Shown here piece by piece: positions 11,272-56,276 of a DNA stretch of 64,000 nucleotides. The position numbers and the translations under genes were made by a program. Where the stretch lies: positions 20,228 to 84,227 of the forward strand of contig JAUZRK010000003.1 of NCBI GenBank assembly GCA_030950485.1. The letters are read 5' to 3'. The notes under the pieces are model-generated. The model was not told where the DNA came from. It searched no databases and was given only the letters and a program-made list of their open reading frames with translations. Every line of letters starts with the position of its first letter. Position 1 is the first letter of the stretch. The DNA is from Candidatus Dojkabacteria bacterium. GTDB taxonomy: Bacteria; Patescibacteriota; Dojkabacteria; J137.

Positions 11272-11286
11272 ATTAATTTCTTAACT

Positions 11287-12268: not shown

Positions 12269-12315
12269 ATTATTTAGAATTAAAACTCATTTAAAGAGCG
12301 TTTATTTATAACTTA

Positions 12316-12340
12316 CCCCCAAGCATAAAGCTTGGGGGGG
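12316..12340 (-). terminator. GC-rich stem-loop (cccccaagc-ataaa-gcttggggg) between tuf and rpsJ: putative terminator or attenuator
   Basis: Perfect 9-bp GC-rich inverted repeat in an otherwise AT-rich spacer, 15 nt after the tuf stop; flanks are only moderately U-rich. Confidence 0.45.
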
Positions 12341-12355
12341 ATAATTTTATCAAGA

Positions 12356-13549
12356 TTATTCAACAATTTCAATTACTACACCTGCACCTACTGTTCTACC
12401 ACCTTCTCTAATAGCGAATGTCATTTGTTCTTCAATTGCTGTCTTACTCATTAGTTCAACAGTAACTGTAACATTATCACCAGGCATTACTAATTGAGCA
12501 TCACCTTCTAGATAGATTGAACCAGTTACATCAGCAGTTCTTATATAGAACTGTGGTTTATAACCAGAACCAAATCCAGTAGCTCTACCTCCTTCTTCTT
12601 TAGAAAGAACATATAATTCTGCTTTAAACTTTGTATGAGGTTTAATAGAACCCTTAGCAGATAATACTTGTCCTCTTTTAATTTCATCTCTCTTAATTCC
12701 TCTTAGTAAGATACCTACATTATCACCAGCTTGACCTTGCCCTAGTGATTTCTTAAACATCTCAACTCCAGTAACTGTTACATTTTTAATATCTTCTGCG
12801 TCACCAACTTGATCTAATATATCATTAACTTTTACAACTCCTCTCTCTATTCTTCCTGTAGCAACTGTACCTCTTCCTTCGATAGAGAATACATCTTCAA
12901 CAGGCATTAAGAATGGTTTATCTAATTCTCTAGCTGGCTCTGGAATTGTCTCATCCATTGTTGCTAGTAATTTAGCCATACCTTCATCTCCATCTTTTTC
13001 ACCAGTTGCTCCATAAAGAGCACTTGCTACTACAAATGGAACTTTTTCTGCGTCGTATCCGTATTTTGTAAGGATATCTTTTACTTCTTCTTTAATCAAC
13101 TCTAATAGATCTTCATCTTGATCATCATCAAATCTGTTTATAAATACCACTAAGTGCTCAACTCCAACTTGCTTAGCTAGTAGAACGTGTTCTCTAGTTT
13201 GTGGCATTGGTCCGTCAGCAGCTGATACAACTAATATAGCACCATCCATCTGAGCTGCTCCAGTAATCATATTCTTAATATAATCCTTGTGTCCTGGACA
13301 GTCAATATGAGCGTAGTGTCTGTTTTCTGATTCGTATTCAACATGAGAAGAAGCAACTGTTACAATTTTATTTGAACCAGCTCTTGCAATTCCTCCTTTA
13401 GCAATATCTTCGTAATTCTTTCCACTTTCTGTCCACCCTTTTCTTCCTGAGTATGCAACTAATGCTGCAGTTAATGTTGTCTTTCCGTGGTCAATGTGAC
13501 CTAAAGTGCCTACGTTAACGTGAGGCTTTGTTCTTTGAAAATCTGCCAT
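12356..13549 (-). CDS. tuf: Translation elongation factor Tu
   Basis: G1 [11 protein letters not shown]2/G3 DCPGHKDY, G4 region FINRFD (NKxD with K to R), [14 protein letters not shown]-terminal beta-barrels. 397 aa. Confidence 0.93.
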
Positions 13550-13811
13550 GTTGAATTTAAATAATAAATTAAAGTTATATATTTCCTGTTGGTAACAAAG
13601 AGTATAGCAATTTTTTTTTATAATTTAAAACCCTATAATCTTTTCTATTTGGTGAATTCCAACTTCAAATCTAAAATTGGTTCTTCGGATTATCCCAGCT
13701 TTACTCTAGAAAATCAACCCCTAAAGCATAAAAAAAATATTTAACGGGCTTTTATATATATAAATAAGATATACAATAGAAACAACTTAATCCTATCTAT
13801 AGATAATAATT

Positions 13812-14666
13812 TCAAGAATTAACATATTCTCCCTTCACATAGCTGCCTAATATTTTTAGCTTCTCGACATAACTAGACAACTCTTTTAATGCATTATTAA
13901 GTGCTTCATCAGCCATACCTGCTGCAACATCCACATAAAACCTATACTCCCAGTCTGTTCCTATAACAGGCCTACTTTCTATTTTAGTTAGAGATAAATC
14001 TCTATCAGCAAAAGCTCTAAGAGTCTTATATAATGAACCCGCTTCTGACCCTAGAGTAAATTGAAAAGTAGTCTTGTAACCATTATCTTCATTATTGACT
14101 ATTCTTTTTATTTCTCCTTCATCTTCTGGTCTACTAATCACATAAAATCGAGTATAATTTTTTGGGTTCTCATGAATGTTGTCTTCAAGTATCTCAAGAT
14201 TGTAAACTTTTGCCGCCATCTTACTAGCGCAGCCTGCTGATGTAATCATATTATTTTCAGCTACCATCTTTACTGAGCCTGCAGTATCTTCATGCTCATG
14301 AAATTTGATTTCTGGATGAGCCAGTTCAAATGGTTTTATTTGACCTCTTGCTACAGGGTGTACATAAATATCAGTTATGTCTTTAAGAAGTTTCCCTTTA
14401 TGGCCAATCAAATGAAAGTTAACTTTAACGTAAACTTCTCCAACCAATGAAACTGAGTAATTAGTAATATTGTCATAATTTTGATAAATAGATCCATATG
14501 TTGAGTTTTCAATTGGCACAACAGTAACGTCAGCAAGCCCTGATTTCAAATCTTCAAATACCTCTCTAAACGAACCTCGTTGAAGAAGATCAATTTCAGA
14601 TCCAAAGACTTGATCCGCAGCAATGTGCGAATAAGATGCTAAATTCCCTTGTATAGATACTTTCAT
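13812..14666 (-). CDS. pheA: Prephenate dehydratase (PDT + ACT domains), paralog 1; TGA stop
   Basis: PDT catalytic domain (VVPIENSTYGSI...) plus a C-terminal ACT domain with ESRP motif (LTKIESRPVIGTDWEYRFYVDV). Confidence 0.8.
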   Translation of the reverse strand: MKVSIQGNLASYSHIAADQVFGSEIDLLQRGSFREVFEDLKSGLADVTVVPIENSTYGSIYQNYDNITNYSVSLVGEVYVKVNFHLIGHKGKLLKDITDIYVHPVARGQIKPFELAHPEIKFHEHEDTAGSVKMVAENNMITSAGCASKMAAKVYNLEILEDNIHENPKNYTRFYVISRPEDEGEIKRIVNNEDNGYKTTFQFTLGSEAGSLYKTLRAFADRDLSLTKIESRPVIGTDWEYRFYVDVAAGMADEALNNALKELSSYVEKLKILGSYVKGEYVNS

Positions 14667-15838
14667 AATATTTCTGATAATTTTTTAATACCTTCATCTA
14701 TGCTCTTTAAATCAGGACTAGAAAAATTTAGTCTTAATTTATTCTTCCCATCTAATTTATTGGGAGTAAATAAAGTTCCTGGCACAAATGATACACCATT
14801 ATTAATTGCTTTTTTATAAATTAGATCAGAATCTATATCGTTCTCTCCTTGTAACCAAATAAACATACCCCCTTCAGGTTCTGCGTAACTATAACTCTCA
14901 GGTAAGTATTTATTCAAAGCTTCGACCATTATATCCTTTCTCACTTTATATATTGAGCTCATCTTTTTAACATTAGTATAGAATCTTTCATTGTCTAATA
15001 TTTCTACAACCACATTTTGAGCTAATACATTTGCATGAACATCAACTGAAAATCTCATTGCGTTTATTTGATCTATCAATTCAAACGGACCTGTATAAAA
15101 CCCTACCCTTAGTCCTGGCCCTATAGATTTAGAAAATGTTCCTAAATAAATTACGTTCTCAGCAGCTAAAGAGTATATGCTATTTATCTGCTTATCATTA
15201 AAGTTAATGTGTCCATACGGATCATCTTCAAGTACAATTAAATCATTGTATTTAATGATCTTTGCTAAAGCAGTCCTTCTTTGCTCAGACAAGGTATAAC
15301 CAGATGGATTTTGAAAAGTAGGAATCAAGTAAGTTAACTTAACATCATACTTCTCTATAAGTCTCTCATACTCACTAATTATTATCCCTTCAGAGTCCAT
15401 AGGTATAGGTACTATCTGTGCTTTACAACTTTGCATTGACTGTAAGGCTGCAAGAAAAGTACACTCTTCTACAAGCACAACATCCCCTTCATCTAAAAAA
15501 GCTTTACAAACTGTATCGATAGTTACTTGACTACCTGAAGAAATGCCTACACTTCTAGAATCAATCTCCAAATTTTGTGTTCTCTTTAAAAACCTTGCAA
15601 CGGCTTCTCTAAGTTGTGGAATCCCATTACTAAAACTATAGTTCATTAGTGATAAATCATTTTTTCCTAGAACCTTATCTACTGACTCTTTAAATAGTTC
15701 ATAATCAAGAGACTCTGCCGCTGGATGACCAGCTGCTAGTGAAATAAGATTGTCTACACCAAAGGTGCTTAAGCTATCACGAACAATCTTAGAGTCCATC
15801 AACCTATTTCTTTCTGATAACTTTTTAATATAATTCAT
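14663..15838 (-). CDS. Class I/II PLP-dependent aminotransferase (likely aromatic/prephenate aminotransferase from context)
   Basis: Fold-type I aminotransferase with the PLP-lysine block TFSKSIGPGLRVGF; start/stop overlap with the flanking pheA-like genes. Confidence 0.7.
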   Translation of the reverse strand: MNYIKKLSERNRLMDSKIVRDSLSTFGVDNLISLAAGHPAAESLDYELFKESVDKVLGKNDLSLMNYSFSNGIPQLREAVARFLKRTQNLEIDSRSVGISSGSQVTIDTVCKAFLDEGDVVLVEECTFLAALQSMQSCKAQIVPIPMDSEGIIISEYERLIEKYDVKLTYLIPTFQNPSGYTLSEQRRTALAKIIKYNDLIVLEDDPYGHINFNDKQINSIYSLAAENVIYLGTFSKSIGPGLRVGFYTGPFELIDQINAMRFSVDVHANVLAQNVVVEILDNERFYTNVKKMSSIYKVRKDIMVEALNKYLPESYSYAEPEGGMFIWLQGENDIDSDLIYKKAINNGVSFVPGTLFTPNKLDGKNKLRLNFSSPDLKSIDEGIKKLSEIL

Positions 15839-15847
15839 ATGTATTTT

Positions 15848-16678
15848 CTACTTATTTAATTTATTTCTATATCTTCCTATAATTGAATATTCTATTGTAC
15901 ATTTATCTAATATTGTTTTCAAACCTATCTCAGTTGATGAATCTACAAGCATGTCTATCCAAAAAGCATATTCCCAATTTGTATCTGGGATTGGCCTTGA
16001 TTCAATCTTTGTTAGCGATATGCCTATACCTCCGATACTAGTCAAAAGATTCGCTAGTGATCCAGCAGAGTGCGATACTCTATATATAACGGATATTTTC
16101 TTATAGTCTTTAGCTGACTCCTCAACTTCAAATACATTATTACTAACAAATATAAATCTTGTAACATTATTAGAGTAGTTGCCTATATTTTCTATAAGAA
16201 TTTTTAAGCCTTTTTTCTTTGCAAGCTCAGCTGAACCAATACAAGCTTTAGTCTTATCTTTTAACTTCAGAATATCCTCAGCACCCGCAGCAGTACTTTT
16301 AGATTCGTTAACTCCATACCCTCTTTCATTAATCATTTCAGAACACTGAGCTATAGCTTTGGGATGAGAATATACTTCTTTAATATCTTTGATCTCGGCG
16401 CCTTCTAAAACTATGAGATTTAAAACTATATCCATATTTGCTTCGCCTACTATCCTAAGCTCTTTCTTGAACATAAAATCTATATTTACATGTACTGTAG
16501 AAGTAATTGAATTCTCGATCGGTAAAACTCCAATGGTATTAGAATTAGTTATACACCTCTTTACAATTTCGTTAAAATTGTCTGATGGTTCTAAATTATA
16601 ATCGTTAGAATCAAAACATTTAGAAGAAATAATTCCAGAATAACTTTGTTTTGGTCCTAAATAATATACTGTTTTCAT
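15848..16678 (-). CDS. Prephenate (or arogenate) dehydratase, paralog 2 (PDT + ACT)
   Basis: PDT domain (IGVLPIENSITSTV) and ACT domain (LTKIESRPIPDTNWEYAFWIDM); clearly a paralog of the 13812-14666 gene. Confidence 0.75.
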   Translation of the reverse strand: MKTVYYLGPKQSYSGIISSKCFDSNDYNLEPSDNFNEIVKRCITNSNTIGVLPIENSITSTVHVNIDFMFKKELRIVGEANMDIVLNLIVLEGAEIKDIKEVYSHPKAIAQCSEMINERGYGVNESKSTAAGAEDILKLKDKTKACIGSAELAKKKGLKILIENIGNYSNNVTRFIFVSNNVFEVEESAKDYKKISVIYRVSHSAGSLANLLTSIGGIGISLTKIESRPIPDTNWEYAFWIDMLVDSSTEIGLKTILDKCTIEYSIIGRYRNKLNK

Positions 16679-17439
16679 TCTTCTTTAAGTCTTAATTGTT
16701 TGTTAGATATTTGAGACATAGTCTCTTCTATTGACATCTTTATTTTGTCAAACTGTTTACTACAGAATGGATTAAAGTTATACATATCCTCAGTAATCTC
16801 CATATCAGCACCGATCCTTTCTACAAAATCGTGCATTCTTGATGCTGATACTGTGTCAATTTCAGTCCTCTTCATACTCAATGTTTTAAGCACATGAGAA
16901 ATAGTTAGAGTAGTAAAGTGAAATTCTGAGGCTAGTTCATCATGTCTTTCTGCTGAGATTTCTACAATTTTGTTTTTTAGCTTAATAAATATATCCTTTA
17001 CTATATTGTAAATCTCCTCACTTGCGTTAATATTTTCAATCACAATATTAAAACCCTCTACAGAATTATTATTATGTTTATAAGACTCTGGCCCATACAT
17101 TGGATGGGTACAAATTTTCATTACTTCTACCGGAAGCTCTTTAATCATAATTTTTTTGGGATAAGATTTAATAGAACAAACATCTATAAATATTGAATCA
17201 TTATCTATATACTTTGCTACTTCCCTAGTAACTTTTTCAAATGCTTTTATTGGCACTGATGGAATGACAATGTCGCATTTACAAGCATCTTCAAAATCAA
17301 AAAAGTCTTTGTTATCAATTTTCTTTGACCTTGAAGAAAATTTAATTTGGACATCTACAATTACATCTTCAAACATTGTTTTTAATAGTTTCGAAAACTT
17401 TCCATATCCTATTATCCCTATTGTTTTAATTTCCTTCAT
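16675..17439 (-). CDS. tyrA: Prephenate/arogenate dehydrogenase
   Basis: N-terminal Rossmann GxGxxG (IGIIGYGKFS) and the TyrA catalytic block (CTHPMYGPES). Confidence 0.7.
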   Translation of the reverse strand: MKEIKTIGIIGYGKFSKLLKTMFEDVIVDVQIKFSSRSKKIDNKDFFDFEDACKCDIVIPSVPIKAFEKVTREVAKYIDNDSIFIDVCSIKSYPKKIMIKELPVEVMKICTHPMYGPESYKHNNNSVEGFNIVIENINASEEIYNIVKDIFIKLKNKIVEISAERHDELASEFHFTTLTISHVLKTLSMKRTEIDTVSASRMHDFVERIGADMEITEDMYNFNPFCSKQFDKIKMSIEETMSQISNKQLRLKEE

Positions 17440-26294: not shown

Positions 26295-27929
26295 TTACTC
26301 TTTCAATAAATTTCTCAGACTCCAAACTATTGAAATTATAAATATTATAAAAAGAAGTGATGCTATATCTATTCCTAGCAATAATCTCGTTTTCTCAGTT
26401 ATAACCATCATCATGAAACCTAAGAAACTCAGTGTAGATGTAAATAGAACAGCTTCGATTTTTAATTTATATTTATCCTGTTTATTCTTTTCATTGTCAG
26501 TTTGATTGACGTTTATTTTTATACCATCTTCTGTTAATCCTTTAAGCATTTTAGCTGAATCTTTTGGAATACTTGTTATATTCTCTTTCCAATCAAGTAA
26601 ACCTCTATATGCCTTTGCCATGTCTTTCTTAAAGTTATCGGTATTAAGGTAGTTCAACGGCATATTCATTTGTTCCTTTTCAAATAATGGTTTCATCATT
26701 TCTAAAATATTAGAAGTCGGAGCTACTATTTGAAGCATCCCATCATATATTGCTAATACTTTACCTAATAGAACAAGATACATTGGAAACTGAATCCCTA
26801 GTTTTGTCGAAACAAACATAGCTTCAGTAAAAGCTGCAGTAGGGCTATAACTTTCTGCAATTGATGTTTCTAATTTATCAACAATCTTCTTCAGCTCTTT
26901 TGCTATTACATCTTTAGGCTCAGCACCTTCTTCTTGGTCGAATTTTAGTACAGCTTCTGTAAGGCCTAAATAATCACCTGAAATTAACGCAAATGCTATA
27001 TTTTTAAATTCTTCTACTTGAGTTTTAGTTATCATAGTCACTATCCCAAAATCTATGTATGAAATTTTATTAGGTTCATTCAAAATAATATTTGATGGGT
27101 GTGGGTCTGCATGAACTAATCCATAGGTAAATATTTGACGATATATATTTGTCGTGAATAAATCCAAAATCATTTTCCTACTATAAATTTTACCTTTATA
27201 AGGCTGTTCATCACTACCTGTGTATTTAAATAAGTCTAGAAGCTCTTTTATTGATGGACCTTCAATAAACTCAGTAACCAGGATTTTATCAGTAGAGTAT
27301 TCTCTATATACCTTTGGTGTATGGGTATTTGTATCATTTTGAAAATTTTCTCTAAATTTCTCCATACTAGAAGCTTCTATACTATAGTCAAGTTCGTTTA
27401 ACGTCCAATTTTCGAACTCCTTTATTAATTCACCTAGTTGGAGTTGCTTTATCTGGGGAATGAATGCACTTAATTTAACGATATTTTTTAGTATACCTAC
27501 ATCCTCCCTAATGAGCTTTTCCATTCCAGGTTTCTGTATCTTAATTGCTACTTTCTCATTCTCGCTTAGATAACCTATATGGACTTGTCCTAACGAAGCC
27601 ACAGCTATCGCAGTATCATCAATTGCCTCAAGAATATGACTTGCATTCTCCCCAAGTTCCTCAGAAATTAAATTCTCTACTATTTCAAATTCAATCGGTT
27701 CTCCTGAATCTAGTAAGACCTGTAGTTCTTTACACGTAATCTTATGTAGTAGATCATACCTTACACTTAACATTTGACCAAACTTAATATAAGTTGGTCC
27801 TAGTTCAGTGATTATTTGCCTTAACTCTATACTTTTAGCCTTTATTTCAGGATTACCTAGCTTGTGACCTTGGCTGAGTAAAGGGTATAGCGCTCTTAGA
27901 AATTTTGTTATTTTAAATACAGAGTTCAT
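26295..27929 (-). CDS. UbiB/ABC1-family atypical protein kinase with C-terminal TM anchor
   Basis: ABC1 signature GPTYIKFGQMLSVRYDLL, kinase-like catalytic region (HADPHPSNIIL), C-terminal hydrophobic helices. Confidence 0.75.
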   Translation of the reverse strand: MNSVFKITKFLRALYPLLSQGHKLGNPEIKAKSIELRQIITELGPTYIKFGQMLSVRYDLLHKITCKELQVLLDSGEPIEFEIVENLISEELGENASHILEAIDDTAIAVASLGQVHIGYLSENEKVAIKIQKPGMEKLIREDVGILKNIVKLSAFIPQIKQLQLGELIKEFENWTLNELDYSIEASSMEKFRENFQNDTNTHTPKVYREYSTDKILVTEFIEGPSIKELLDLFKYTGSDEQPYKGKIYSRKMILDLFTTNIYRQIFTYGLVHADPHPSNIILNEPNKISYIDFGIVTMITKTQVEEFKNIAFALISGDYLGLTEAVLKFDQEEGAEPKDVIAKELKKIVDKLETSIAESYSPTAAFTEAMFVSTKLGIQFPMYLVLLGKVLAIYDGMLQIVAPTSNILEMMKPLFEKEQMNMPLNYLNTDNFKKDMAKAYRGLLDWKENITSIPKDSAKMLKGLTEDGIKINVNQTDNEKNKQDKYKLKIEAVLFTSTLSFLGFMMMVITEKTRLLLGIDIASLLFIIFIISIVWSLRNLLKE

Positions 27930-44090: not shown

Positions 44091-46478
44091 TTAAAATGGA
44101 GATTTATTTATTAAATCAAGAATGAAATCTAACTCAGTATTAAAATTTTCCACTGTAATACTACCGTTATTATATGTAAGAACCTTATCTCTATCTAAAG
44201 TAAATGAAGTTGAATGGGTTTTCCCATTGTCATTTATATTAATAAAATATTCTTCGCCCCATGATTTACCTGGATGTTTTTGAATTAACATTCTATAAAC
44301 TCTACCATTATCAATATAATTTAACTCATCTGGAAGGTCATAACTTACCTCTAGTGATTTTTCAATAATTGGATCATCTTCAGTTAATCTTCGATGGTCA
44401 AACCTAACTACATTCTCGCTAATCTGTTTATTTACAACTTCATCAAAGTAATCATATGGTTCATAGTAATGAGCCCCAGAAGCTTTATAACCTGTTGAGT
44501 CAAAATTCTCTGATCCATCAGGTGTAAAAAATCTAACCCAGGCTCTATATACGAACTTACCAGTTTTATCATATTGTAATTCTAATTCATCTTCGTAAAC
44601 TTTATCTTGTACCCAATCAACCTCAATATCCTTTGATATGTTACCTGATGAATCAATATTTATATTTTGAGTTACAGAGTCTCTTAAGTACTTATTTATC
44701 TTCAAAGAACAGTTTTGTGCCTCACTGAAATGGAAATAATCACCGTTAAATATTTGCTCTATTCTCCCATCCATTCCGTATGTATCGAAATAGTTTTGTA
44801 AAGCTACGTCGTCAGAAATTAATGCTAAATCCTTTGCATAAAAGCTTTGGATTAGTATTTCAACTAAATCTAGCCCTTCATCCACTTCTAATTCAGCTGC
44901 TCTATTACCTATAGCACTAGCAATATCTTCAATGATTTGCTTTCTCTCGCTGCTAAAGGCTTTCTCAGGATCATCTGTATCTTGTTTAATAAAATCAAAT
45001 AGTGTCTCGGCGTTAACTGTACCAAATCCTTCAACTTCAAGTGGTTGTAAAACTTCTAATAGGTTTTCTGCAAAAGAAAAGTTACCAACAATTATATGAT
45101 CGTATGGAGGAAATTCTTCTGGATAATATAAATTTGCAAGATCATAATAATCTGAAAATATTTGTGCTGTTAGATTTAGATCCGGATAAAGTCCTACGTC
45201 CTGAGCTCTTAAAATAGTTGCCCCACAACTATTATTAAAACTATTCATAAGATATGACTGTCCGTAAATATTTTGATAGTATCCAGAGTAAGGACTCACG
45301 TAAGGTGGGATTTCCTCTAATTCATAAAAATTATCAGGACCAGTATCAACTCCAACACTAAATCTATTAAAATTTTCTAAGTTCCAAGTATCTGTTAGAG
45401 ACACGTTATCAACTTCACCATCTGTTATTGAAAGTGTTCCATAAACCGTAATTAACCCTCCTGATGACCTCATCTCTGCTTCATTTTGAAGAATTAATAA
45501 ATAAGTGACTGTCTCTTTAGAACCAATAAGGTTAGGTACCTCTCTTAAGAATTCAGCAGTTTCTCTAGATGTATTTGGGAAATCTCTAGCAATGTCTTGT
45601 AAGTCTATTAACATACCTTTTGCTTTTATGTTTCTTATGTTTGGTACATAAGTCGGATCTACAAGCTCAAGTTCTTTTACTATATCAAGTATGTCAGGCT
45701 CTAATCTTTCATATAAATCGATGTATTCATCTAGATCAGACATTATTAGGTTTATTGAATTTTCTTCTTTATTTTCAGCTAATAAAGAATCATCTGTACC
45801 TCCTGTAAATGTAGTGAATTCTGGCTCGCTATTAATTATCAATGGTTGAGAAGGATCTGTTCTAAAGCCAGATGCAGCAAGTAAATCAATAAGCTGTGGC
45901 ATTGCATCATCTATAAGTAAATTTGATTTAATTATAATGCTATTAGCTACTTCTAAATTATTGTAATAGCCTTCTGTAAAGGAAAGTGTCTTTAAAAAGC
46001 TAAAATTTTCCAATTCACCATTAATAGTATCCATTTCCGATTGGATTATATCTATCTGTTCATTTAATCGACTTACATCTTTATTTGCAAAATCAGTCTG
46101 AATTTGATTTAAAGTAACTTTAATATTACTTGCTGATGCTTTTATCCTTAATAAAGGTGAAATGATATTAATGTAAGAAAATATACCTACTACAACTAAA
46201 ACAAGTCCTAGGATTGTAAATATTTTTTTAAAGTTTCGTTTATTCTTTGTTTTTAATGTCTTTTTGGGTGTTTTTTTAGATCTCTGATTAACAGATTTTT
46301 TTTCTTCTTTCTGACTATTCTGAAATGAAAGTCTATCAATTTTCTTTTTTTTTGAAGCTTTAGTTTTATCTCCTATCTTTATCTTACGATCACTTTCAGA
46401 CGTAACCCTTTCCATAGAGACATCATTTCCTTTAGCTATATTTTTCTTTTCTTCCTTTGTTAGAAACATAATACTCAC
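44091..46478 (-). CDS. Large membrane-anchored protein (795 aa): Lys-rich cytoplasmic N-terminus, single TM, large extracytoplasmic domain
   Basis: N-terminus extremely K-rich (KKKKIDRLSFQNSQKEEKK...KTKNKRNFKK), then TM FTILGLVLVVVGIFSYINIISPL; start codon 14 nt downstream of the GT4 gene stop. Confidence 0.5.
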   Translation of the reverse strand: MSIMFLTKEEKKNIAKGNDVSMERVTSESDRKIKIGDKTKASKKKKIDRLSFQNSQKEEKKSVNQRSKKTPKKTLKTKNKRNFKKIFTILGLVLVVVGIFSYINIISPLLRIKASASNIKVTLNQIQTDFANKDVSRLNEQIDIIQSEMDTINGELENFSFLKTLSFTEGYYNNLEVANSIIIKSNLLIDDAMPQLIDLLAASGFRTDPSQPLIINSEPEFTTFTGGTDDSLLAENKEENSINLIMSDLDEYIDLYERLEPDILDIVKELELVDPTYVPNIRNIKAKGMLIDLQDIARDFPNTSRETAEFLREVPNLIGSKETVTYLLILQNEAEMRSSGGLITVYGTLSITDGEVDNVSLTDTWNLENFNRFSVGVDTGPDNFYELEEIPPYVSPYSGYYQNIYGQSYLMNSFNNSCGATILRAQDVGLYPDLNLTAQIFSDYYDLANLYYPEEFPPYDHIIVGNFSFAENLLEVLQPLEVEGFGTVNAETLFDFIKQDTDDPEKAFSSERKQIIEDIASAIGNRAAELEVDEGLDLVEILIQSFYAKDLALISDDVALQNYFDTYGMDGRIEQIFNGDYFHFSEAQNCSLKINKYLRDSVTQNINIDSSGNISKDIEVDWVQDKVYEDELELQYDKTGKFVYRAWVRFFTPDGSENFDSTGYKASGAHYYEPYDYFDEVVNKQISENVVRFDHRRLTEDDPIIEKSLEVSYDLPDELNYIDNGRVYRMLIQKHPGKSWGEEYFININDNGKTHSTSFTLDRDKVLTYNNGSITVENFNTELDFILDLINKSPF

Positions 46479-47140: not shown

Positions 47141-48895
47141 GTGGATGCTAAAATAAATATAAGATTAAAGCTTAAATTGTTTATGTCAGATATTGAGGTT
47201 ATAAAATCAAGGCTTGATATAGTAGAGGTTATATCTAAATACGTAGAGCTAAAACCATCTGGTAGTAACTATAAGGGACTCAGTCCATTTAAAACTGAAA
47301 AGACTCCATCTTTTATGGTTAGTCCGCAGCTTCAAATATTTAAAGATTTTAGTAGTGGAATTGGTGGTGATGCCATTAAATTTCTAATGGAATTTGAAAA
47401 ACTTAGTTTTAGAGAAGCACTCGAAAAGGCTGCCGAAATGGCAGGGGTAGAATTAACAAATAACTATAACAGTAAGGATACTGAAAAAGAAAAACTGAAA
47501 AAGCGAATAATTGAAGCTAATGCACTTACAACTCAATTTTATCAATACATTCTTAAACAACATAAATCTGGAAAGCCAGGCCGTGATTATGCATCTGAAA
47601 GAAATATTGGAAGTAGCGAAATTGAGAAGTTCTTATTTGGATATGCACCATCAAGTTACTATAATCTTAAAACTTTTTTAAAAAAGAAAGGATATGAAGA
47701 AAAAGAGTTAATTGAGTTTGGTTTACTTGTAGAACGAAATAATGATGTAATTGATAAGTTTAGAAATAGGTTAATGCAACCGATTAGAGATTTAAACGGT
47801 CATATTCTAGGTTTTAGTGGTAGATATATTGGTGACTATGAAAATGCGCCGAAATATTTAAACTCACCTGCAACTGAGGTCTATGATAAAAAATCTATTT
47901 TATACGGAATGTATGAAGGTAGTAGTGCAATTAGAAAAAGTGATTTTGCAATTATAGTTGAAGGAAATATAGATCCAGTTTCATCTCATAGAGTTGGTAT
48001 AGAAAATATAGTAGCTCCATTTGGAACTTCATTTACCCCTGGTCAAGCAAAACTATTGAAAAGATTTACTGATATGGTTTACTTTTCATTTGATACCGAT
48101 GAGGCTGGAGTAAATGGATTAATAAGAGCAATAAAAATCGCCGAAGATTTTGAATTTAAACATAAAGTTTTAGATCTAGGAAAATATAAAGATGCTGATG
48201 ATCTAATAAATTCAGAACCTGAACTTTGGGAGAAGACTATTAGCAATGCAATCAATTCAGTTGAATATTTAGTTAAACTTTTTTCAGAAAAAGAAGATTT
48301 GGGAAGTATAGACGGGAAAAGACAGTTACAATCTAGAATATTACCTGTTTTGAAACTAATAAAAAAAAGATTAGATATTAAACATTATATTAAGCAAGTA
48401 GCTCTATTATTAGAATTATCTACTGATGATGTAGAAAAACTGATTTCAAATGAAAAGACTTATATCCCAAGACCTAAGGAATTACATGATGATGAGATAA
48501 TAAAAAAAGAAAAGGAAGAATTTATGTTATATAAACATTTTCTAGCATTAATAGTTCAGTCAGAAAATGTCGATACTACACAGTTTAATCCGGATATTTT
48601 TCAAGACGAAACACAAAAAGAGCTTTTTGAAATAATTCAACAAACTGATAATAAAATAACTAATGAAATTCTAGGAAGTTTAAGCGACGAAGTTATAAAG
48701 TTATACAGCGATGTAAGCTTAATAGATACTTCTACTAATGCAGATGCAAATACTATAGAAAATTTATATAAGCGTCTATATAAGGAATATTTAAATAAAA
48801 AACTTTTGAAGTTACGAATAGAGCTTTCTGTTAGTTCAGATGAATCTCTTTTGGAAAAAATTACTGAGATAACTAATGAATTAAAAAAGATTTAG
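47141..48895 (+). CDS. dnaG: DNA primase DnaG with a degenerate (zinc-ligand-less) N-terminal zinc-binding domain
   Basis: ZBD block GLSPFKTEKTPSFMVSPQLQIFKDFSSGIGGDAIKFL aligns to CPFH.EKTPSF.V....FHCFGCG..GD.I.F with C/H/C/C replaced by S/K/D/S. TOPRIM motifs EGNIDPVSSH...APFGTS and FSFDTDEAG are intact. Confidence 0.85.
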   Translation: MDAKINIRLKLKLFMSDIEVIKSRLDIVEVISKYVELKPSGSNYKGLSPFKTEKTPSFMVSPQLQIFKDFSSGIGGDAIKFLMEFEKLSFREALEKAAEMAGVELTNNYNSKDTEKEKLKKRIIEANALTTQFYQYILKQHKSGKPGRDYASERNIGSSEIEKFLFGYAPSSYYNLKTFLKKKGYEEKELIEFGLLVERNNDVIDKFRNRLMQPIRDLNGHILGFSGRYIGDYENAPKYLNSPATEVYDKKSILYGMYEGSSAIRKSDFAIIVEGNIDPVSSHRVGIENIVAPFGTSFTPGQAKLLKRFTDMVYFSFDTDEAGVNGLIRAIKIAEDFEFKHKVLDLGKYKDADDLINSEPELWEKTISNAINSVEYLVKLFSEKEDLGSIDGKRQLQSRILPVLKLIKKRLDIKHYIKQVALLLELSTDDVEKLISNEKTYIPRPKELHDDEIIKKEKEEFMLYKHFLALIVQSENVDTTQFNPDIFQDETQKELFEIIQQTDNKITNEILGSLSDEVIKLYSDVSLIDTSTNADANTIENLYKRLYKEYLNKKLLKLRIELSVSSDESLLEKITEITNELKKI

Positions 48896-49257: not shown

Positions 49258-50424
49258 GTGAAGAAGAAAACATACAAGAAAAAAAGATTAAAAATAATCA
49301 TTAGTATAGCTACTATTTCTCTAGCTGTTGGTGCATTTTCAGTTTTTAGCTTAGGACTAATTGAAAGCAACCCAATAACCTTCAGCAATAATGTAAACAA
49401 TTCCCCTGATAGCAAAAGGAATAAAATAACAGCTGATGAAAAAAATGGAAATATAGAAGGGTTGTTTGATAGTAAAGTAAGTAATCATACTTTAATAGAG
49501 CAAGAAGTCGCTAGCGATGATAACAAAATTTATTTAGAGATTAGTAGAATAGATGGTACATATATTGGATATATTAATAATCAGTATGCGTACGAAGAAA
49601 AATTAAGAATCTTAGATAATGATATTTATAATATATTACTATATGGAGATTTAAATGCTTCATTTATTAAATCTGAAAATTTAAAAGATAAAATTATATA
49701 TCGTAGTTCTGATGAGTATCTTGAACTAGTTTCTTTAGATAGTCTTAATTTTAAAATAAGAGATTATTATTTTAATACAGCTAACCAAAAAATTACTTAT
49801 CTAGTTACTAATTCATCTGGAAGTGAAATTTATCAGGCTGATCTTAATGAAAAGACTTTAGACGCAAAGCAAGTTTTTAAAAGTAGTGAGGAGTTCTATA
49901 ATTTTTTAGATCATAGTGATAGTTATATTATATTAAGTAAGGGTGAGAAATGTTCGAAATTAAACTTATCTAATAAAAAATTAAGTAGTGTTAGTTGTTC
50001 TGAAGAACCAATTGTTAGTGTTGATAGAAATGGTGTAAAAAAACTAGATAGTGATTTAAATGAATACACTTATTTAATCAAATTTGATAATAAAACTATA
50101 GTTTCTCAAATCAAATATATTAATGAGAAAATATATTACATCAAATCTAATTCGGACAATTTAACAACAAAAAGTCTCATCGAATTTGATATAGAGGAAA
50201 GTACTGAATCAGTTATTTTAAATGATATTGATGTTGATAGAATAATAGACTATACAGTATTTAACAATGTAGCATTCTTAAATACGTTAGTTGATAATCA
50301 GCCAAGAATTCTATTTAAAGATACAACCCCTACTTCTTATACAGGAATATGTACTAGCTTTGATTGCAATGCTATTAGCAGTATAAATCTAGGAAGTGGA
50401 ATAGTAAGTATTCGGTTTCTGTAA
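49258..50424 (+). CDS. Hypothetical membrane-anchored/secreted protein (388 aa, Asn/Ser/Ile/Lys-rich)
   Basis: N-terminal TM (IIISIATISLAVGAFSVFSLGLI); no motif. Confidence 0.45.
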   Translation: MKKKTYKKKRLKIIISIATISLAVGAFSVFSLGLIESNPITFSNNVNNSPDSKRNKITADEKNGNIEGLFDSKVSNHTLIEQEVASDDNKIYLEISRIDGTYIGYINNQYAYEEKLRILDNDIYNILLYGDLNASFIKSENLKDKIIYRSSDEYLELVSLDSLNFKIRDYYFNTANQKITYLVTNSSGSEIYQADLNEKTLDAKQVFKSSEEFYNFLDHSDSYIILSKGEKCSKLNLSNKKLSSVSCSEEPIVSVDRNGVKKLDSDLNEYTYLIKFDNKTIVSQIKYINEKIYYIKSNSDNLTTKSLIEFDIEESTESVILNDIDVDRIIDYTVFNNVAFLNTLVDNQPRILFKDTTPTSYTGICTSFDCNAISSINLGSGIVSIRFL

Positions 50425-50432: not shown

Positions 50433-50879
50433 CTAACTTAGAAAGCTATCGATTAATAACTTCTTTGAATATGATTCATTTAAACCTCTAGACTTTATAT
50501 AATCTAGTAGTTCACGATCTAGATATCCAATAGTTGCCCCATGTCCAGCTTTAACCTCATCCTCAGTTATCTCTAAACTTGGAATAACTCTTGCTCTTGA
50601 TGTTTCATCGATAAGAAGACACCTTATAGTTAAGTATGAATCGACATTCTTAGCTCCTTTTTCTATTTTCAACATTCCATTCATATTAAAATACCCTCCT
50701 CTATATACAATTGCTTTTATTAAAATATCTGACTTTACGTCCCTATTTCTATGTATAAATACTGCATTTAAATTTAGGACTTCACCCTCATTCACTACAA
50801 AAGTACCTCTTATCTCTGAATCGACATTTACATTAATTGTAATATCTTCTTCTTTTGAATTTAGATTAATTTGCTTCAT
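50433..50879 (-). CDS. Orphan SufB/SufD C-terminal-domain protein (148 aa)
   Basis: SRARVIPSLEITEDEVKAGHGATIGYLDRELLDYIKSRGL matches the conserved SufBD C-terminal block; the N-terminal beta-helix region is absent. Confidence 0.55.
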   Translation of the reverse strand: MKQINLNSKEEDITINVNVDSEIRGTFVVNEGEVLNLNAVFIHRNRDVKSDILIKAIVYRGGYFNMNGMLKIEKGAKNVDSYLTIRCLLIDETSRARVIPSLEITEDEVKAGHGATIGYLDRELLDYIKSRGLNESYSKKLLIDSFLS

Positions 50880-51489
50880 TTAAGAAATTCTTTATTGGTT
50901 TATAGCTTTTTCTATGTATTTCAGTTACACCTAAAGATTTTAACGCATCTATATGCTTTTTTGTACCGTAACCTTTATGTGCTTCAAGTCCATAACCAGG
51001 AAATTTAAGAGAGAGCTCATTCATTAGTCTATCTCTCTCAACCTTGGCTATTATTGAAGCTGCTGCGATTGAGTAATATTTAAGGTCTCCTTTTATTACT
51101 TGTATAGTATTCTTACCAAAGTCTTCACTAAATCTACCGTCAATTAAAAAAAGTGTGTCAGGCGTATTTAAAAGTTTACATAAATCTTCAATTAGCTTTA
51201 TAACTGACTTGCCAATACCTACACTATCTATTAGATCAATATCTCCATATAAAGTCTGATAGTTATTTAAAGAAAGTTTCTCATAAACTTCTTCCCTTTT
51301 TTTAAGTGAGATTTTTTTCGAATCTGTTACATTGTCAACATGTCCTGAATCTGAACTATATATAAATGCAGTAACAGTAACAGGTCCTGCCCAACAACCT
51401 CTTCCAACCTCATCTATTCCTATAATTCTTTTGTATTTGCCTTCTGCTAATATACGAGTTTCGAAATCATCTTTTAAGAATTCAGTCAT
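50866..51489 (-). CDS. rnhB: Ribonuclease HII
   Basis: IIGIDEVGRGCWAGPVTVTAF (DE.GRG..aGPvv motif) and downstream ...DSKK... Confidence 0.85.
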   Translation of the reverse strand: MTEFLKDDFETRILAEGKYKRIIGIDEVGRGCWAGPVTVTAFIYSSDSGHVDNVTDSKKISLKKREEVYEKLSLNNYQTLYGDIDLIDSVGIGKSVIKLIEDLCKLLNTPDTLFLIDGRFSEDFGKNTIQVIKGDLKYYSIAAASIIAKVERDRLMNELSLKFPGYGLEAHKGYGTKKHIDALKSLGVTEIHRKSYKPIKNFLNEAN

Positions 51490-51491: not shown

Positions 51492-54407
51492 TTATAAATT
51501 GCTTTCTCTTATTGAAAATTTCTTCAATGATAAAACATTTTGAAAGTTGAAATATATATTAGGATCGAATTCGATTAATAAGGTTGGCTGTAAAGAATTT
51601 GCGAATCTATTTACATCTCTATCTAAGTTAATATTGTAACCAAATAATACCCCTTTTATATATAATCCATCTCCCTTTCTATTGATATCTGGATAATCTC
51701 TAGTTGTTATTATATCCCCATCTGATATTAAACTTGCTTCTATTATATCGTAGCTTGCTAGTGTTGGATCCAATACATCTAAGTCTGTTTTTAAATCACC
51801 GTTTAATATTTCTATGTTTCCCTTTACTATAAACATGCAGGCATCTTTTTGATTCAATGTCGTAAAGTCTGGTTCAATTGTTAAATTTCCCGTTATTAAT
51901 ACTATTGCTGGTTCATTACATATACTGTCTTTCTGTATTCGCATATTTCCATTTACTCTATATAATCCTTCATTATTTGGCAATCCCGGTAACTCTGTTG
52001 CTGCTGTTCCTAAGACGTTTCCTTCCACGTCATTAATACCAAGAACCTTAGAACAGTCTCTAAAACATGTAAAGCTTGTTTCATTTGCATCACATTTCCC
52101 ATCTCCACATATACCTGTAGTTTGACAATCATTAGGACAAGTTAATGTATTCTCTCCAAATATTGACTCACAAATACCATCATTATCACATGTGTCTTGA
52201 TTTCCTGTAATACAATCTCCCGGACAACTACTTGTATCTTCTCCACTCTCACATGTTCCATTATTATTACATCCTAAATCCTGACAATCATTAGGACATG
52301 TTATAAAGTCTTCTCCTAATGGACCTTCACAAACACTATTATTATTACATACCTCTACTCTACAAAATGTATCGCATCCATCTCCATCTACTAGATTTCC
52401 ATCATCACATTCTTCTGTATTTTGTCTTATTGCATCTCCACAAACTCCATTCTTATTATTATTTCCTGGGGTTCCAATTAATCTTCCATTTATTTCTACA
52501 TCACTATTTACCTCTATTACACTATCTGATTTACTTGAAAAGATTAGATATTCAATTTGTTTATAGAAGCTTCCTTTGTCTAAGATTAGTTCTGTTAATG
52601 TGTTATCTGAATAACTTCCTAATACTTGATTATATTTTGAGAATCTTGTTCTATCTGAACTTACTCCTCCATCTACAGTTATGTATTCTGATAGAAATGA
52701 TTGTTCATCTATATCAAACTCTGGTATTGTAATTCTTGCATCTGGTACTGATATTCCACTAAATCCACTATTTGCTAGTGTTGAGTTTCCAACAACCATT
52801 ATCCATGGTTTCTTTAAAAATGGTGAGGTTATTGTTCTTTTTATTGTTGATGGATTACATGCATTATCTTCTCCATTTATTTCGAATGCATAATTTGATT
52901 CTAGTCTATATTCTATATCTGCATAGTTATGCGTTCCTAGATTACCTAGATTAATTAGTGCATCTTGTTGTGTATTTGCTGTTGGAAAGTTAAAGATTGT
53001 AGGGATTGTATTATCTCTTAGTTGACTTCCGTCTTTATTTGATTCTACTAGACTACTGAAAGCTTTCATTCCTGAGTATGTATCATTTGCTCCGAATGTT
53101 ACCTCAAATGAATTATCTGAAAGATAATTAGCTGCACTTACACTTAGTGCTGGTGATGCTGTGTCTACTCCCCATACTACTGCTGTTGCTGTTAATGGAT
53201 TTATTCTTGAATATCTTAATCTTTCATTTCCTGTTGCATTTGATGAAAACAATACGCCATCTCCTGCTTCTGTTGCTACCATTGAGTAGACATCATATTC
53301 TTTATTTACAAAGTTATCTTTGAATTCTATTGCTATTGTACTTTCTCCACCTGTTAGATTTCTATTCCAATTTGTATTTACTCCAACTGACTTTAGAGCT
53401 GAGTTATTTGCAAAGTTATTTATATCTCCTCCATTTGCTACTGGAGTTTGTAATACTAGTTTTCCTGAATTATCTAACATGAATATTTCTCCTGTTATTA
53501 CATTTATATTTACTAGTATTGAATTATTATTTGCTACTGATGATCTTAGACTTGCTTCATCTATTACATCTGTAAATGTATTTCTTGGTACTAGTGCTAC
53601 TGATGTATATATGTTTGATCCTGGGTTTTCTACATTGTAGCTAAGCTTAAATGTTATTGGATTGCTTGTCCCTACATTATTTATGCTTCCTGAGATTCCC
53701 ACTCCGCAAACATCATTCCATGCCGCTCCTGCGTCTATCCCAAACTCTGTTATCTCTGGCCTCTTTGCTGTTGTGAAACTCCAAGTAGCTGAGTTAGCAG
53801 ATCTACTTCCGTTTTCTGTCCTAACAAACCATTGATAAGTAGTTTCCCAGTTTAAGCCTGCTAGATTTCTAGCAGTAGTTGAAGGAGGTAAATTGGCAGC
53901 CGCTGTAAGCCATGAAGCACTTCCTTGTACTCTGTAAAAAACATCATAATTATTATTATTTCCTGGGCAACCTTTTCCCCAACTAGATGTAGGATTCCAA
54001 TCTAATAATACTGAAGTTAAAAGACCACTAGAACCATTTGATGGGGAGGCTAAACTTACAGCGGCAGGGTTAGTAGAATTACAAGAAGGTATACAGCTTC
54101 CACTTGAACAAGCTGTCCCTGTATTACTGCAGTCTCCCTTATCCCAAGTATATTGGTTTATTTGCCCACCTACACTACAAGTAGCATCACAGTTAGAAGT
54201 GCCATTTGCATAACAATAATTAGAACAAGCAGCCTGACCAGGACAACTTACACATTCTCTAGGTCTACTACCTTCACACCACTTAGCTCCAACTCCTCTA
54301 CCTCCGCATGAATCGCAAGCATTAACAGTATTAAGCGATACCGCACCAAATAGTGTAAGACCAAAAGCTATGATTAAAAAAGAAATAATTATTTTAAAAT
54401 TTTTCAT
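51492..54407 (-). CDS. Large secreted cysteine-rich surface protein (971 aa) with Myxococcus-type cysteine-rich repeats
   Basis: Signal peptide MKNFKIIISFLIIAFGLTLFGAVS. Numerous Cys pairs at the N-terminus. Repeat CGDAIRQNTEECDDGNLVDGDGCDTFC followed by iterated ...C.NDG.CE.....E....TCPNDCQ units. Confidence 0.65.
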   Translation of the reverse strand: MKNFKIIISFLIIAFGLTLFGAVSLNTVNACDSCGGRGVGAKWCEGSRPRECVSCPGQAACSNYCYANGTSNCDATCSVGGQINQYTWDKGDCSNTGTACSSGSCIPSCNSTNPAAVSLASPSNGSSGLLTSVLLDWNPTSSWGKGCPGNNNNYDVFYRVQGSASWLTAAANLPPSTTARNLAGLNWETTYQWFVRTENGSRSANSATWSFTTAKRPEITEFGIDAGAAWNDVCGVGISGSINNVGTSNPITFKLSYNVENPGSNIYTSVALVPRNTFTDVIDEASLRSSVANNNSILVNINVITGEIFMLDNSGKLVLQTPVANGGDINNFANNSALKSVGVNTNWNRNLTGGESTIAIEFKDNFVNKEYDVYSMVATEAGDGVLFSSNATGNERLRYSRINPLTATAVVWGVDTASPALSVSAANYLSDNSFEVTFGANDTYSGMKAFSSLVESNKDGSQLRDNTIPTIFNFPTANTQQDALINLGNLGTHNYADIEYRLESNYAFEINGEDNACNPSTIKRTITSPFLKKPWIMVVGNSTLANSGFSGISVPDARITIPEFDIDEQSFLSEYITVDGGVSSDRTRFSKYNQVLGSYSDNTLTELILDKGSFYKQIEYLIFSSKSDSVIEVNSDVEINGRLIGTPGNNNKNGVCGDAIRQNTEECDDGNLVDGDGCDTFCRVEVCNNNSVCEGPLGEDFITCPNDCQDLGCNNNGTCESGEDTSSCPGDCITGNQDTCDNDGICESIFGENTLTCPNDCQTTGICGDGKCDANETSFTCFRDCSKVLGINDVEGNVLGTAATELPGLPNNEGLYRVNGNMRIQKDSICNEPAIVLITGNLTIEPDFTTLNQKDACMFIVKGNIEILNGDLKTDLDVLDPTLASYDIIEASLISDGDIITTRDYPDINRKGDGLYIKGVLFGYNINLDRDVNRFANSLQPTLLIEFDPNIYFNFQNVLSLKKFSIRESNL

Positions 54408-54466
54408 CTCTATAAAAGTTATTAATTACATAACTAGTATAGAGTATTTAGTTATTGAGATAAAAT

Positions 54467-54898
54467 TTATTTTTTCCTTAGTATTTTTGAAGATGCCGCT
54501 AATATAGTTATTAAACTAAATGCAGCAAAGGCCATAAACGGAATAGTTATAAAACCTAAAAAATTTACGTATATATTATCGCAAGGATTAGCTAATTCAC
54601 AAGTAGAGCTTTCAAATAGATCCGTCTTCTGAAGTAGATACTGATAACCATTTATAAACATACCTGGAATAGCTAGAGCTAAAATATATGCCTCAAAAGA
54701 TTTTTCCTTTTTTGCAATTGCTATCAAACCAATTATAGCCATTGGATATAGAAAGATTCTCCCATACCAACAAAGCTGACAAGGATAAATTTGTTCTACT
54801 TCGCTATAGTATAAGCTACCAAGAACGCCAGAAAAAGCTATTAGAGTAACTAGATGTAACCAATAATTAATTATGAATTCTTTTATCTTTAAAGTCAT
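54467..54898 (-). CDS. Disulfide bond formation protein B (DsbB/BdbC family)
   Basis: Four TM helices; first periplasmic loop Cys pair YPCQLCW and second loop Cys pair (STCELANPC). Confidence 0.65.
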   Translation of the reverse strand: MTLKIKEFIINYWLHLVTLIAFSGVLGSLYYSEVEQIYPCQLCWYGRIFLYPMAIIGLIAIAKKEKSFEAYILALAIPGMFINGYQYLLQKTDLFESSTCELANPCDNIYVNFLGFITIPFMAFAAFSLITILAASSKILRKK

Positions 54899-54953
54899 TT
54901 TATTTTAGTAATGTTTAAGTTGAATTAATAATACGCCCTCTTAGTAAATTTGT

Positions 54954-54986
54954 AAAAAAAAATACGCAATAAATTGCGTATTTTTC
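54954..54986 (-). terminator. Rho-independent terminator after rplS
   Basis: aaaaaaaa-atacgcaat-aa-attgcgtat-tttt; on the minus-strand RNA the hairpin is followed by U9. Confidence 0.75.
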
Positions 54987-55622: not shown

Positions 55623-56276
55623 TTGGATGTTACAAAACTTAAAATTAAAAAGCTAGTTAGAGATTATATAAAAACCAGATCTAATATATATTTTGGAGAA
55701 ATATATAAAAGAAGTGTTGACGATGTATATAGGTTTGTGTACAGCAGAACCGGCGATAAGTCTGTTTCGGAAGATATTACATCAGAAGTGTTTATAACTT
55801 TAATAGATGTTATTGATAAATATAACTTTAAAGTAAAATTTACAACTTTTGTATATGGAATAGCTTTCAATAAAATTAGACAGCATTGGCAAAAAAATAA
55901 AAAAACATTTGAAATCTTTGAAGAGACTAATGAGAGCGATGACATAATAAATAATGAATATGCAATTGATTCAGATGTTTTAGAAAATATTGAAAAGAAA
56001 GAAGTTCAGATTGATGAAGTAATAAGCCAGTTAAGCGAAATTCTAGACATGCTATCTAAAAAATATCGTAATGTTTTAGTTGAAAGATTTATAAATTCTA
56101 AAAATATTAAGCAAACTGCTTTAACTTTAAATTTAAGTGAGGGAAATGTCAGAGTAATTCAAAATAGAGCCTTGAATAAAGCAAGACAGTTATCTTCAGA
56201 AATGTACGATACAGATGCTATTAATTTTTTAGAATCAAAGAAAATTTCAAGTAATAATTTAGTAAAAAGTTTTTAA
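55623..56276 (+). CDS. Sigma-70 family (ECF-like) RNA polymerase sigma factor
   Basis: Region 2 (DVYRFVYSRTGDKSVSEDITSEVFITL) and region 4 HTH (LSKKYRNVLVERFINSKNIKQTALTLNLSEGNVRVIQNRALNKARQ). Confidence 0.65.
   Translation: MDVTKLKIKKLVRDYIKTRSNIYFGEIYKRSVDDVYRFVYSRTGDKSVSEDITSEVFITLIDVIDKYNFKVKFTTFVYGIAFNKIRQHWQKNKKTFEIFEETNESDDIINNEYAIDSDVLENIEKKEVQIDEVISQLSEILDMLSKKYRNVLVERFINSKNIKQTALTLNLSEGNVRVIQNRALNKARQLSSEMYDTDAINFLESKKISSNNLVKSF

Follow-up and report, generated by a model that had tools for sequence, protein, structure and literature searches.

We analysed a 64,000-nucleotide stretch of DNA (the window; about 30% G+C) from a Candidatus Dojkabacteria bacterium, which belongs to the candidate phyla radiation (CPR; assembly GCA_030950485.1, contig JAUZRK010000003.1, positions 20,228 to 84,227 of the forward strand). 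Our interest is in two neighbouring minus-strand genes: dsbB, coding for a 143-residue protein of the thiol oxidase family DsbB, and BIG, the name that we use both for the second gene and for the 971-residue cysteine-rich protein that it encodes. An initial annotation of the window, made from the sequence, proposed that the smaller protein is a dedicated oxidative-folding partner of the larger one. Both open reading frames proved to be real (Table 1), and identical entries for the two proteins exist in a Candidatus Dojkabacteria metagenome-assembled genome (GCA_030949735.1). The annotation had placed dsbB downstream of the large gene; on the coding strand it lies 5' of BIG, that is, upstream.

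Reading along the minus strand, the order of features is rplS, a hairpin with a run of T residues, a promoter-like site, dsbB, BIG, rnhB, and a SufD-like gene that closes the same-strand run. The hairpin looks like a terminator for rplS. The gap between dsbB and BIG is 59 nucleotides long (54408-54466), and when we looked for a hairpin within it we found none; the next gap is only 2 nucleotides, and the last two genes overlap. Because of this spacing, together with the hairpin, T-run and promoter-like site that follow rplS, the four genes from dsbB to the SufD-like gene are probably co-transcribed as one unit. The site upstream of dsbB is a pattern match only; promoter-like sites are not enriched relative to shuffled sequences.

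The 143-residue protein matches the Pfam family DsbB (PF02600) with 54.8 bits (cut-off 22.1) over profile positions 4-146 of 148, and among NCBIfam models the BdbC-type PRK03113 fits it best, with 117.6 bits and near full-length coverage. By hydropathy it has four hydrophobic stretches (residues ~7-32, 42-65, 66-89 and 108-141). A CxxC motif, C40-Q-L-C43, is located in the first outer loop, and C100 and C106 make up a second cysteine pair in the second outer loop. An alignment of 11 sequences (Bacillales, Chloroflexi, Curtissbacteria and two Dojkabacteria-type homologues) shows no variation at C40, C43, R47 or C106, while C100 is present in at least 90%. The segment PCQLCWYGR47 aligns with PCVLCIYER48 of Escherichia coli DsbB, with C41, C44 and R48 on the E. 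coli side; R48 is the quinone-site arginine that follows the CxxC motif. Loss of the DsbB quinone-site architecture had been named in the initial annotation as an outcome that would speak against its proposal, but R47 aligns with R48, and the likeness to DsbB and BdbC that it had seen is borne out by the Pfam match, the hydrophobic stretches and both cysteine pairs. Like BdbC of Bacillus subtilis, the protein is a DsbB of about 140 residues with four predicted membrane helices, a first-loop CxxC followed by W/Y-x-R, and a close second cysteine pair before the last helix (LGFITIPF), and it has 41-48% identity to Bacillales homologues. Unlike the BdbC/BdbD system, it has no bdbD-like gene adjacent to it or within the window, and it occurs in a CPR host. 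Judged from its sequence, the gene product is a genuine BdbC-like DsbB, an unremarkable representative of an already known family.

BIG contains 38 cysteines among its 971 residues (3.9%), compared with a frequency of 0.52% in the other proteins of the window (binomial P = 3.7e-21), and accounts for 38 of the 134 cysteines in all window proteins. The earlier description of dozens of paired cysteines was an overstatement, since 38 cysteines make at most 19 pairs. They form two clusters, at residues 31-147 (14 cysteines) and 656-785 (20 cysteines), with four more scattered elsewhere. As had been proposed, the N-terminus looks like a signal peptide: a hydrophobic stretch at residues 6-24 is followed by VNA/C, where cleavage would presumably occur, and the structure model described below has a helix at residues 2-19. 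We found no LPXTG or other recognisable anchor motif in BIG.

The second cluster begins with a Myxococcus-type repeat, correctly recognised in the initial annotation. It scores 38.7 bits against TIGR02232 (cut-off 20.8) at residues 655-686 and is present in one copy, the unit CGDAIRQNTEECDDGNLVDGDGCDTFC occupying residues 656-682. The Pfam family DUF4215 scores 22.8 bits on BIG, below its gathering cut-off of 27, and a phmmer search of PDB sequences matched this segment to the repeat of pappalysin-1 (E = 0.0012). The iterated cysteine units that the annotation had also picked out are four units of four cysteines with the spacing C-x5-C-x8-10-C-x3-C, at residues 687-708, 713-732, 740-761 and 767-785. 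Searches of Pfam and NCBIfam at E <= 10 gave no family for these units, for the N-terminal head or for the C-terminal domain. BIG thus resembles TIGR02232 and DUF4215 proteins in one segment that passes the NCBIfam threshold, but unlike the multi-copy TIGR02232 proteins it has a single copy, situated in a rare linker insertion, and the units that follow are shorter and match no library model.

We built an AlphaFold2 model of BIG from an alignment of 73 family members (see below) and used Foldseek to search for similar folds. The model is confident at residues 110-640 and 805-965, with a predicted local distance difference test score (pLDDT) above 90 for 533 residues and mostly above 90 in the region 216-645; in the head the score is below 50 for residues 23-93 and about 60 for residues 101-110. 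BIG is predicted to comprise a signal peptide, a cysteine-rich head, a stalk of FN3/Ig-like domains and a beta-helix like that of ice-binding proteins. Foldseek aligned about 430-500 columns of the model to tandem FN3/Ig arrays (E ~1e-6 to 1e-8), and the predicted structure has the FN3 beta-sandwich fold. Among the matches are streptococcal and enterococcal adhesin domains (SspB C123 and Ig-like domains of PrgB, E ~3e-6 to 4e-6). Like these Gram-positive adhesins, BIG has a chain of beta-sandwiches behind a signal peptide, but it lacks their LPXTG motif and any sequence homology to them, and its stabilisation appears to be disulfide-based. The C-terminal beta-helix does not belong to DUF3494 by sequence (no Pfam family match, identity 14-17%). 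Other differences from DUF3494 proteins are that it ends a multidomain protein as its C-terminal module and that it has a conserved cysteine pair; ice binding is not implied. The modelled architecture suggests an exported stalk-and-head protein that would be located at the cell surface. The earlier suggestion of a disulfide-dense surface protein or adhesin is thus supported by the exported-type, adhesin-like predicted fold, which makes BIG a plausible client of DsbB.

To define the family to which BIG belongs we relied on an exhaustive phmmer search, because a word-indexed protein search with BIG returned only BIG itself, its candidates being swamped by cysteine-repeat proteins. A word-indexed search with a repeat-free family profile gave just three marginal FN3-type matches. 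With phmmer, 2955 proteins had E <= 0.001, and 84 of these also passed E <= 1e-30; the matches are of two classes. Proteins of the first class are about 800 residues long and match residues 5-645 and 790-970 of BIG with 27-35% identity. Those of the second are very large multi-repeat proteins that match residues 650-790 only, including giants with 9-45 copies of TIGR02232. We define the BIG family as the members of the first class, from which we made alignments of 13 and then 73 sequences.

The 73 aligned proteins have a median of 20 cysteines, and the total is even in 84% of them. Cysteines C147, C234, C517, C830 and C857 are kept in at least 90% of the relatives, and the C-terminal domain, which ends in the family sequence ...YSIRE (...FSIRE in BIG), has exactly two cysteines (C830 and C857) in nearly all 73. 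By these features the family looks intrinsically disulfide-type. In the alignment of 13 sequences C34, C65, C73 and C109 of the head are invariant, and across the wider family the head is variable, with 6-35 cysteines in most full-length members. Opposite residues 641-800 of BIG, most relatives have about 7 residues. A long insertion is found at this site in just four of the 73 members, the one in the window being the most cysteine-rich (20 cysteines), so that on the alignment the cysteine-repeat block of about 140 residues is a rare insertion; its make-up of one TIGR02232 repeat and four short 4-Cys units is predicted for this genome only. Relatives that have no dsbB gene nearby are just as rich in cysteine (18-22 residues). 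BIG is not an orphan, then, but part of an unannotated, widespread family that is built from known folds and is so far confined to Dojkabacteria-like CPR bacteria. Some relatives (L016:12037-16191 and L007:10891-13986) have insertions of several hundred residues within the C-terminal beta-helix domain, and Laminin_G_3 domains are present in others (P0130). It seems that large modules can be inserted into these proteins at a small number of fixed sites.

To compare gene order we used two samples of loci, which are referred to by L numbers: eight independent loci fetched through relatives of BIG (BIG-sampled) and 48 loci from species-representative genomes fetched through DsbB (DsbB-sampled). 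In all eight BIG-sampled loci the BIG gene is preceded by two small genes, smallA and then smallB (Table 1). SmallA proteins are 154-216 residues long with an N-terminal membrane helix, and smallB proteins are 130-160 residues long with a membrane helix in most cases and two conserved cysteines. The common context is rplS-(HIT)-rnhB-A-B-BIG-sufBD-like-...-rpmH-dnaG, a conserved block of housekeeping genes (rplS, rnhB, sufBD-like, rpmH and dnaG). The two small genes also precede BIG in L016, making nine of nine related loci, and L007 has two complete copies of the module. The window differs from this pattern: rnhB comes after BIG, and neither smallA nor smallB was found in the window by tblastn or profile HMM searches (all E > 0.1). 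Possibly, smallA and smallB anchor the BIG protein in the genomes that have them.

By comparison, dsbB is an inconstant part of the block. No more than two of the eight BIG-sampled loci have it (L002 and L005, confirmed by tblastn), and there it lies between rplS and rnhB; rnhB and the two small genes separate it from BIG, so the two are never immediate neighbours there. In the other six it is absent within 6-10 kb of BIG. Conversely, just one of the 48 DsbB-sampled loci contains a member of the BIG family (L016, with the order rplS-dsbB-rnhB-A-B-BIG), and in two loci labelled Dojkabacteria, L024 and L026, dsbB is found in unrelated contexts without BIG. The oxidase gene is therefore not conserved beside the BIG gene across related genomes. 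Because smallA and smallB are missing from the window and rnhB follows BIG, we attribute the direct adjacency of dsbB and BIG to a local rearrangement of the housekeeping block.

Table 1. Coordinates of features in the window (first 14 rows) and of smallA-smallB-BIG modules in related loci (numbered within each locus).
Feature	Position	Strand	Basis or remark
rplS	55475-55005	-	Upstream of dsbB
Palindromic hairpin followed by T-run, AAAAATACGCAATTTATTGCGTATTTTTTTTT, reads identically on - strand	54958..54985	-	rplS-dsbB intergenic region
Promoter-like site TTTACA-17-TATTAT	54928..54956	-	Directly upstream of dsbB; consensus scan 10/12
dsbB, 143 aa, BdbC-type DsbB	54467..54898	-	Pfam PF02600, NCBIfam PRK03113, alignments, hydropathy
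BIG gene, 971 aa	51492-54407	-	Open reading frame
BIG aa 1-30, signal-peptide-like N-terminus MKNFKIIISFLIIAFGLTLFGAVSLNTVNA/C	54318..54407	-	Hydropathy; model helix aa 2-19
BIG aa 31-109, Cys-rich N-terminal head (13 Cys, with motifs CDSC and CVSC)	54081..54317	-	Sequence
BIG aa 110-215, predicted FN3-like beta-sandwich, conserved WGxGC147P motif	53763..54080	-	
BIG aa 216-645, predicted Ig/FN3-like beta-sandwich chain (stalk), conserved C234 and C517	52473..53762	-	Model, Foldseek, alignment
BIG aa 655-686, single TIGR02232 (myxo_disulf_rpt / DUF4215-type) acidic Cys-rich repeat	52350..52445	-	NCBIfam
BIG aa 687-786, four short 4-Cys units	52050..52349	-	Regular expression and direct reading
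BIG aa 797-971, predicted C-terminal right-handed beta-helix, ice-binding-protein (DUF3494) fold type, C830/C857 pair	51495..52019	-	
rnhB (RNase HII)	50866..51489	-	Pfam RNase_HII 117 bits; start 2 nt past BIG stop codon
SufD-like C-terminal core, 148 aa	50433..50879	-	Pfam SUFBD_core 108.8 bits; 14-nt overlap with rnhB
smallA-smallB-BIG module, L002	5057-8697		
smallA-smallB-BIG module, L004	5087-8415		
smallA-smallB-BIG module, L005	1834-5244		
smallA-smallB-BIG module, L006	9121-12421		
smallA-smallB-BIG module, L007, first copy	5457-8909		
smallA-smallB-BIG module, L007, second copy	9862-13986		
smallA-smallB-BIG module, L012	9043-12481		
smallA-smallB-BIG module, L013	9056-12517		
smallA-smallB-BIG module, L015	9065-12508		
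smallA-smallB-BIG module, L016	11084-16191		

Homologs of DsbB occur under the labels Curtissbacteria, Microgenomates, WWE3, Komeilibacteria, Saccharibacteria and Dojkabacteria, in several cases next to a dsbA gene. The remark in the initial annotation that extracytoplasmic disulfide machinery is sparse in this lineage is unsupported as worded in view of these homologs, whose frequency across CPR genomes was not measured. A DsbA-like gene adjoins dsbB in 31 of the 48 DsbB-sampled loci and likewise at a Curtissbacteria locus, where dsbB overlaps a Thioredoxin_4/DSBA gene. A tblastn search with a Curtissbacteria DsbA gave no matches in the window or in loci L001-L007, and a scan for CxxC motifs in all open reading frames of the window found them only in MsrB, BIG, DsbB, a probably spurious antisense frame and the C-terminus of ribonucleotide reductase. 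By analogy with B. subtilis, where the quinone reductases BdbC and BdbB maintain BdbD, the extracytoplasmic oxidase, in its oxidised state (PMC2765640), a BdbD/DsbA-like carrier would be expected to be encoded elsewhere in the genome. At two loci from other CPR lineages (L025:9660-9998 in Microgenomates and L055:9512-9880 in Saccharibacteria) an exported-looking protein of 112-122 residues with 6 cysteines is encoded directly upstream of dsbB on the same strand. A small cysteine-rich protein could be a recurring neighbour of DsbB in those lineages.

We consider it reasonably probable that the DsbB of the window is a general BdbC-type oxidase of which BIG is the largest visible client, and that the two genes are adjacent through local rearrangement and do not form a dedicated module. 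The mechanism would be that DsbB, a four-helix membrane enzyme, takes electrons from extracytoplasmic thiols and hands them on to a membrane quinone, and that a DsbA/BdbD-like intermediary encoded elsewhere links it to its clients. BIG would be exported through the Sec pathway to the cell surface and its signal peptide cleaved, after which up to 19 disulfides could be made by the DsbB-driven pathway, making it the largest client in the window by number of cysteines. We favour a general oxidase because of the scarcity of dsbB at BIG loci (2 of 8) and of BIG at DsbB loci (1 of 48), because L024 and L026 have dsbB without BIG, and because cysteine-rich relatives of BIG exist without dsbB and other exported window proteins have even numbers of cysteines. 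The latter, which are exported-looking proteins with 2, 4, 4 and 4 cysteines, are a small sample; a bias towards even cysteine numbers has been used as a signature for inferring a working disulfide system (PMC2823432). Several observations weigh against this interpretation. No DsbA/BdbD-like partner was found in the 64-kb window or in the Dojkabacteria-type loci, and a DsbA-like gene is adjacent to dsbB at none of the six Dojkabacteria-type dsbB loci (the window, L002, L005, L016, L024 and L026). The window, which covers part of the genome, also has no men or ubi genes for quinone biosynthesis. The cysteine-rich regions of the BIG model have pLDDT values below 50, so no disulfide pairing can be read from it, and the PRK03113 score of DsbB falls narrowly under the cut-off of 124, for which reason we call the protein BdbC-like. 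Lastly, dsbB lies at most 3 kb upstream of BIG in four genomes (the window, L002, L005 and L016), always on the same strand, and this recurrence leaves some room for functional coupling.

On the reading of the initial annotation, dsbB and BIG would form a dedicated pair, the oxidase having been recruited next to a single demanding protein that it serves exclusively or for the most part. In its favour, dsbB and BIG adjoin each other on one strand and no terminator-like hairpin separates them, dsbB is upstream of the BIG module again in L002, L005 and L016, BIG holds more than a quarter of the cysteines of the window's proteins (38 of 134), and the usual adjacent dsbA is found at none of the six Dojkabacteria-type loci. 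However, six of the eight BIG-sampled loci manage without a nearby dsbB and yet encode BIG proteins with 18-22 cysteines, and rnhB and two further genes intervene at the two that have it. Dojkabacteria loci L024 and L026 have the oxidase without BIG, the surrounding housekeeping genes are in a conserved order, and paired cysteines also occur in other exported proteins of the window. The idea of a dedicated enzyme and substrate does not hold up, and we regard it as unlikely; nor does the dsbB-BIG pairing amount to a system of a new type. A dedicated oxidase has its main precedent in the sunA cluster of B. subtilis, which reportedly contains bdbA and bdbB (Dorenbos and colleagues, 2002, cited in PMC2765640). 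The window resembles this sublancin 168 cluster in that a DsbB-family gene is co-directional with the gene for an exported cysteine-rich product. Unlike the situation here, where no second dsbB is known, the sublancin oxidase of B. subtilis is an extra paralogue that is carried with its substrate on a mobile element, whereas the linkage of dsbB to BIG is not conserved (2 of 8 loci) and housekeeping genes are interleaved.

The lack of an adjacent DsbA-like gene at six of six Dojkabacteria-type loci, as against its presence at 31 of 48 loci overall, could instead mean that DsbB in Dojkabacteria acts directly on its substrates, or through a CxxC segment in the head of BIG, which has the motifs CDSC and CVSC. 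Yet C34 is the sole one of the four cysteines in these motifs that never varies in the alignment of 13 sequences, and characterised BdbC/DsbB enzymes work through BdbD/DsbA (PMC2765640). Only 64 kb of the genome was inspected, and non-adjacency says little because in E. coli and other well-studied organisms dsbA is not linked to dsbB. We therefore think DsbA-independent oxidation quite improbable. A more far-reaching version, in which BIG with smallA and smallB is the main envelope or host-attachment structure of Dojkabacteria and is folded by a DsbA-less DsbB that uses quinone from the host membrane, strikes us as very improbable, but if true it would tie the assembly of an episymbiont's surface to a host-derived cofactor. 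Quinone scavenging has been proposed for at least one CPR bacterium, a Saccharibacterium (PMC6031116). It is also conceivable, though extremely unlikely in our view, that the cysteines of BIG mainly bind metal or remain reduced and that the proximity of dsbB is a coincidence. Many CPR bacteria inhabit anoxic groundwater or sediment, and the cysteine-rich segments are modelled with low confidence, with no pairing geometry seen. Against this, 84% of the family have an even number of cysteines, strictly conserved pairs such as C830/C857 lie inside well-folded domains predicted to be extracytoplasmic, the TIGR02232-type repeat has a fixed four-cysteine spacing that is shared with the extracellular protein pappalysin-1, and an intact DsbB has been kept with all its catalytic residues.

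If the general-oxidase interpretation is correct, this genome shows that at least one large surface protein of Dojkabacteria is built on disulfides and that an intact DsbB is kept for this purpose, which would be useful background on envelope assembly in small host-dependent bacteria. A more useful by-product is the BIG family itself: unannotated, cysteine-rich proteins of about 800 residues with a predicted FN3/Ig stalk and beta-helix, usually encoded after two small membrane proteins. The family is a reasonable candidate for a major component of the cell surface in this lineage, and the smallA-smallB-BIG module is a candidate surface structure of Dojkabacteria.

Among the other genes of the window, one on the minus strand (26295-27929) codes for an atypical kinase of the ABC1/UbiB type (Pfam, 204.9 bits) with two membrane-like segments. 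The ABC1/UbiB family is usually linked to quinone biology, so this gene is of interest for the question of what reoxidises DsbB here. Beyond the end of the SufD-like gene, a plus-strand gene (49258-50424) encodes an exported-looking protein of 388 residues with 4 cysteines and no Pfam match. In L002, L013 and L016 counterparts of 407-416 residues occupy the corresponding position and are encoded on the other strand, and it is likely to be a further disulfide-containing envelope protein conserved in the block. The 148-residue SufD-like protein consists of the C-terminal core of SufB/SufD alone, and TIGR01981 (sufD) scores 124 bits on it, below cut-off. Its gene directly follows BIG in L002-L004, L006, L013 and L014, and L007 and L015 have it at another place in the locus; the half-size protein may be a feature of the lineage.

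Two plus-strand open reading frames opposite BIG, at 52319-52732 (137 codons) and 53320-53640 (106 codons), are in all likelihood not genes, and we rejected them. They are low-complexity antisense frames of a conserved coding region, with translations rich in His/Leu/Tyr or Phe/Ser/Thr. An Rfam scan of the window gave no match. Over 19.5 kb all differences between the window and the GenBank record (locus L001) are single-base indels, mostly in homopolymer runs, with no substitutions; the indels are at 44526, 45153, 46152, 48883-48884, 49270, 49279 and 56023, and none is within dsbB or BIG. A sigma-factor gene (55623-56276) is one open reading frame of 217 codons in the window but is split into fragments of 75 and 145 residues in the GenBank record, and a DUF4012 gene (44091-46478) is also intact in the window. 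Finally, in the minus-strand interval 13812-17439, genes for two paralogous prephenate dehydratases, a class I/II aminotransferase and a prephenate dehydrogenase lie in a row. To us, such a compact block for aromatic amino acids is unexpected in a reduced CPR genome.

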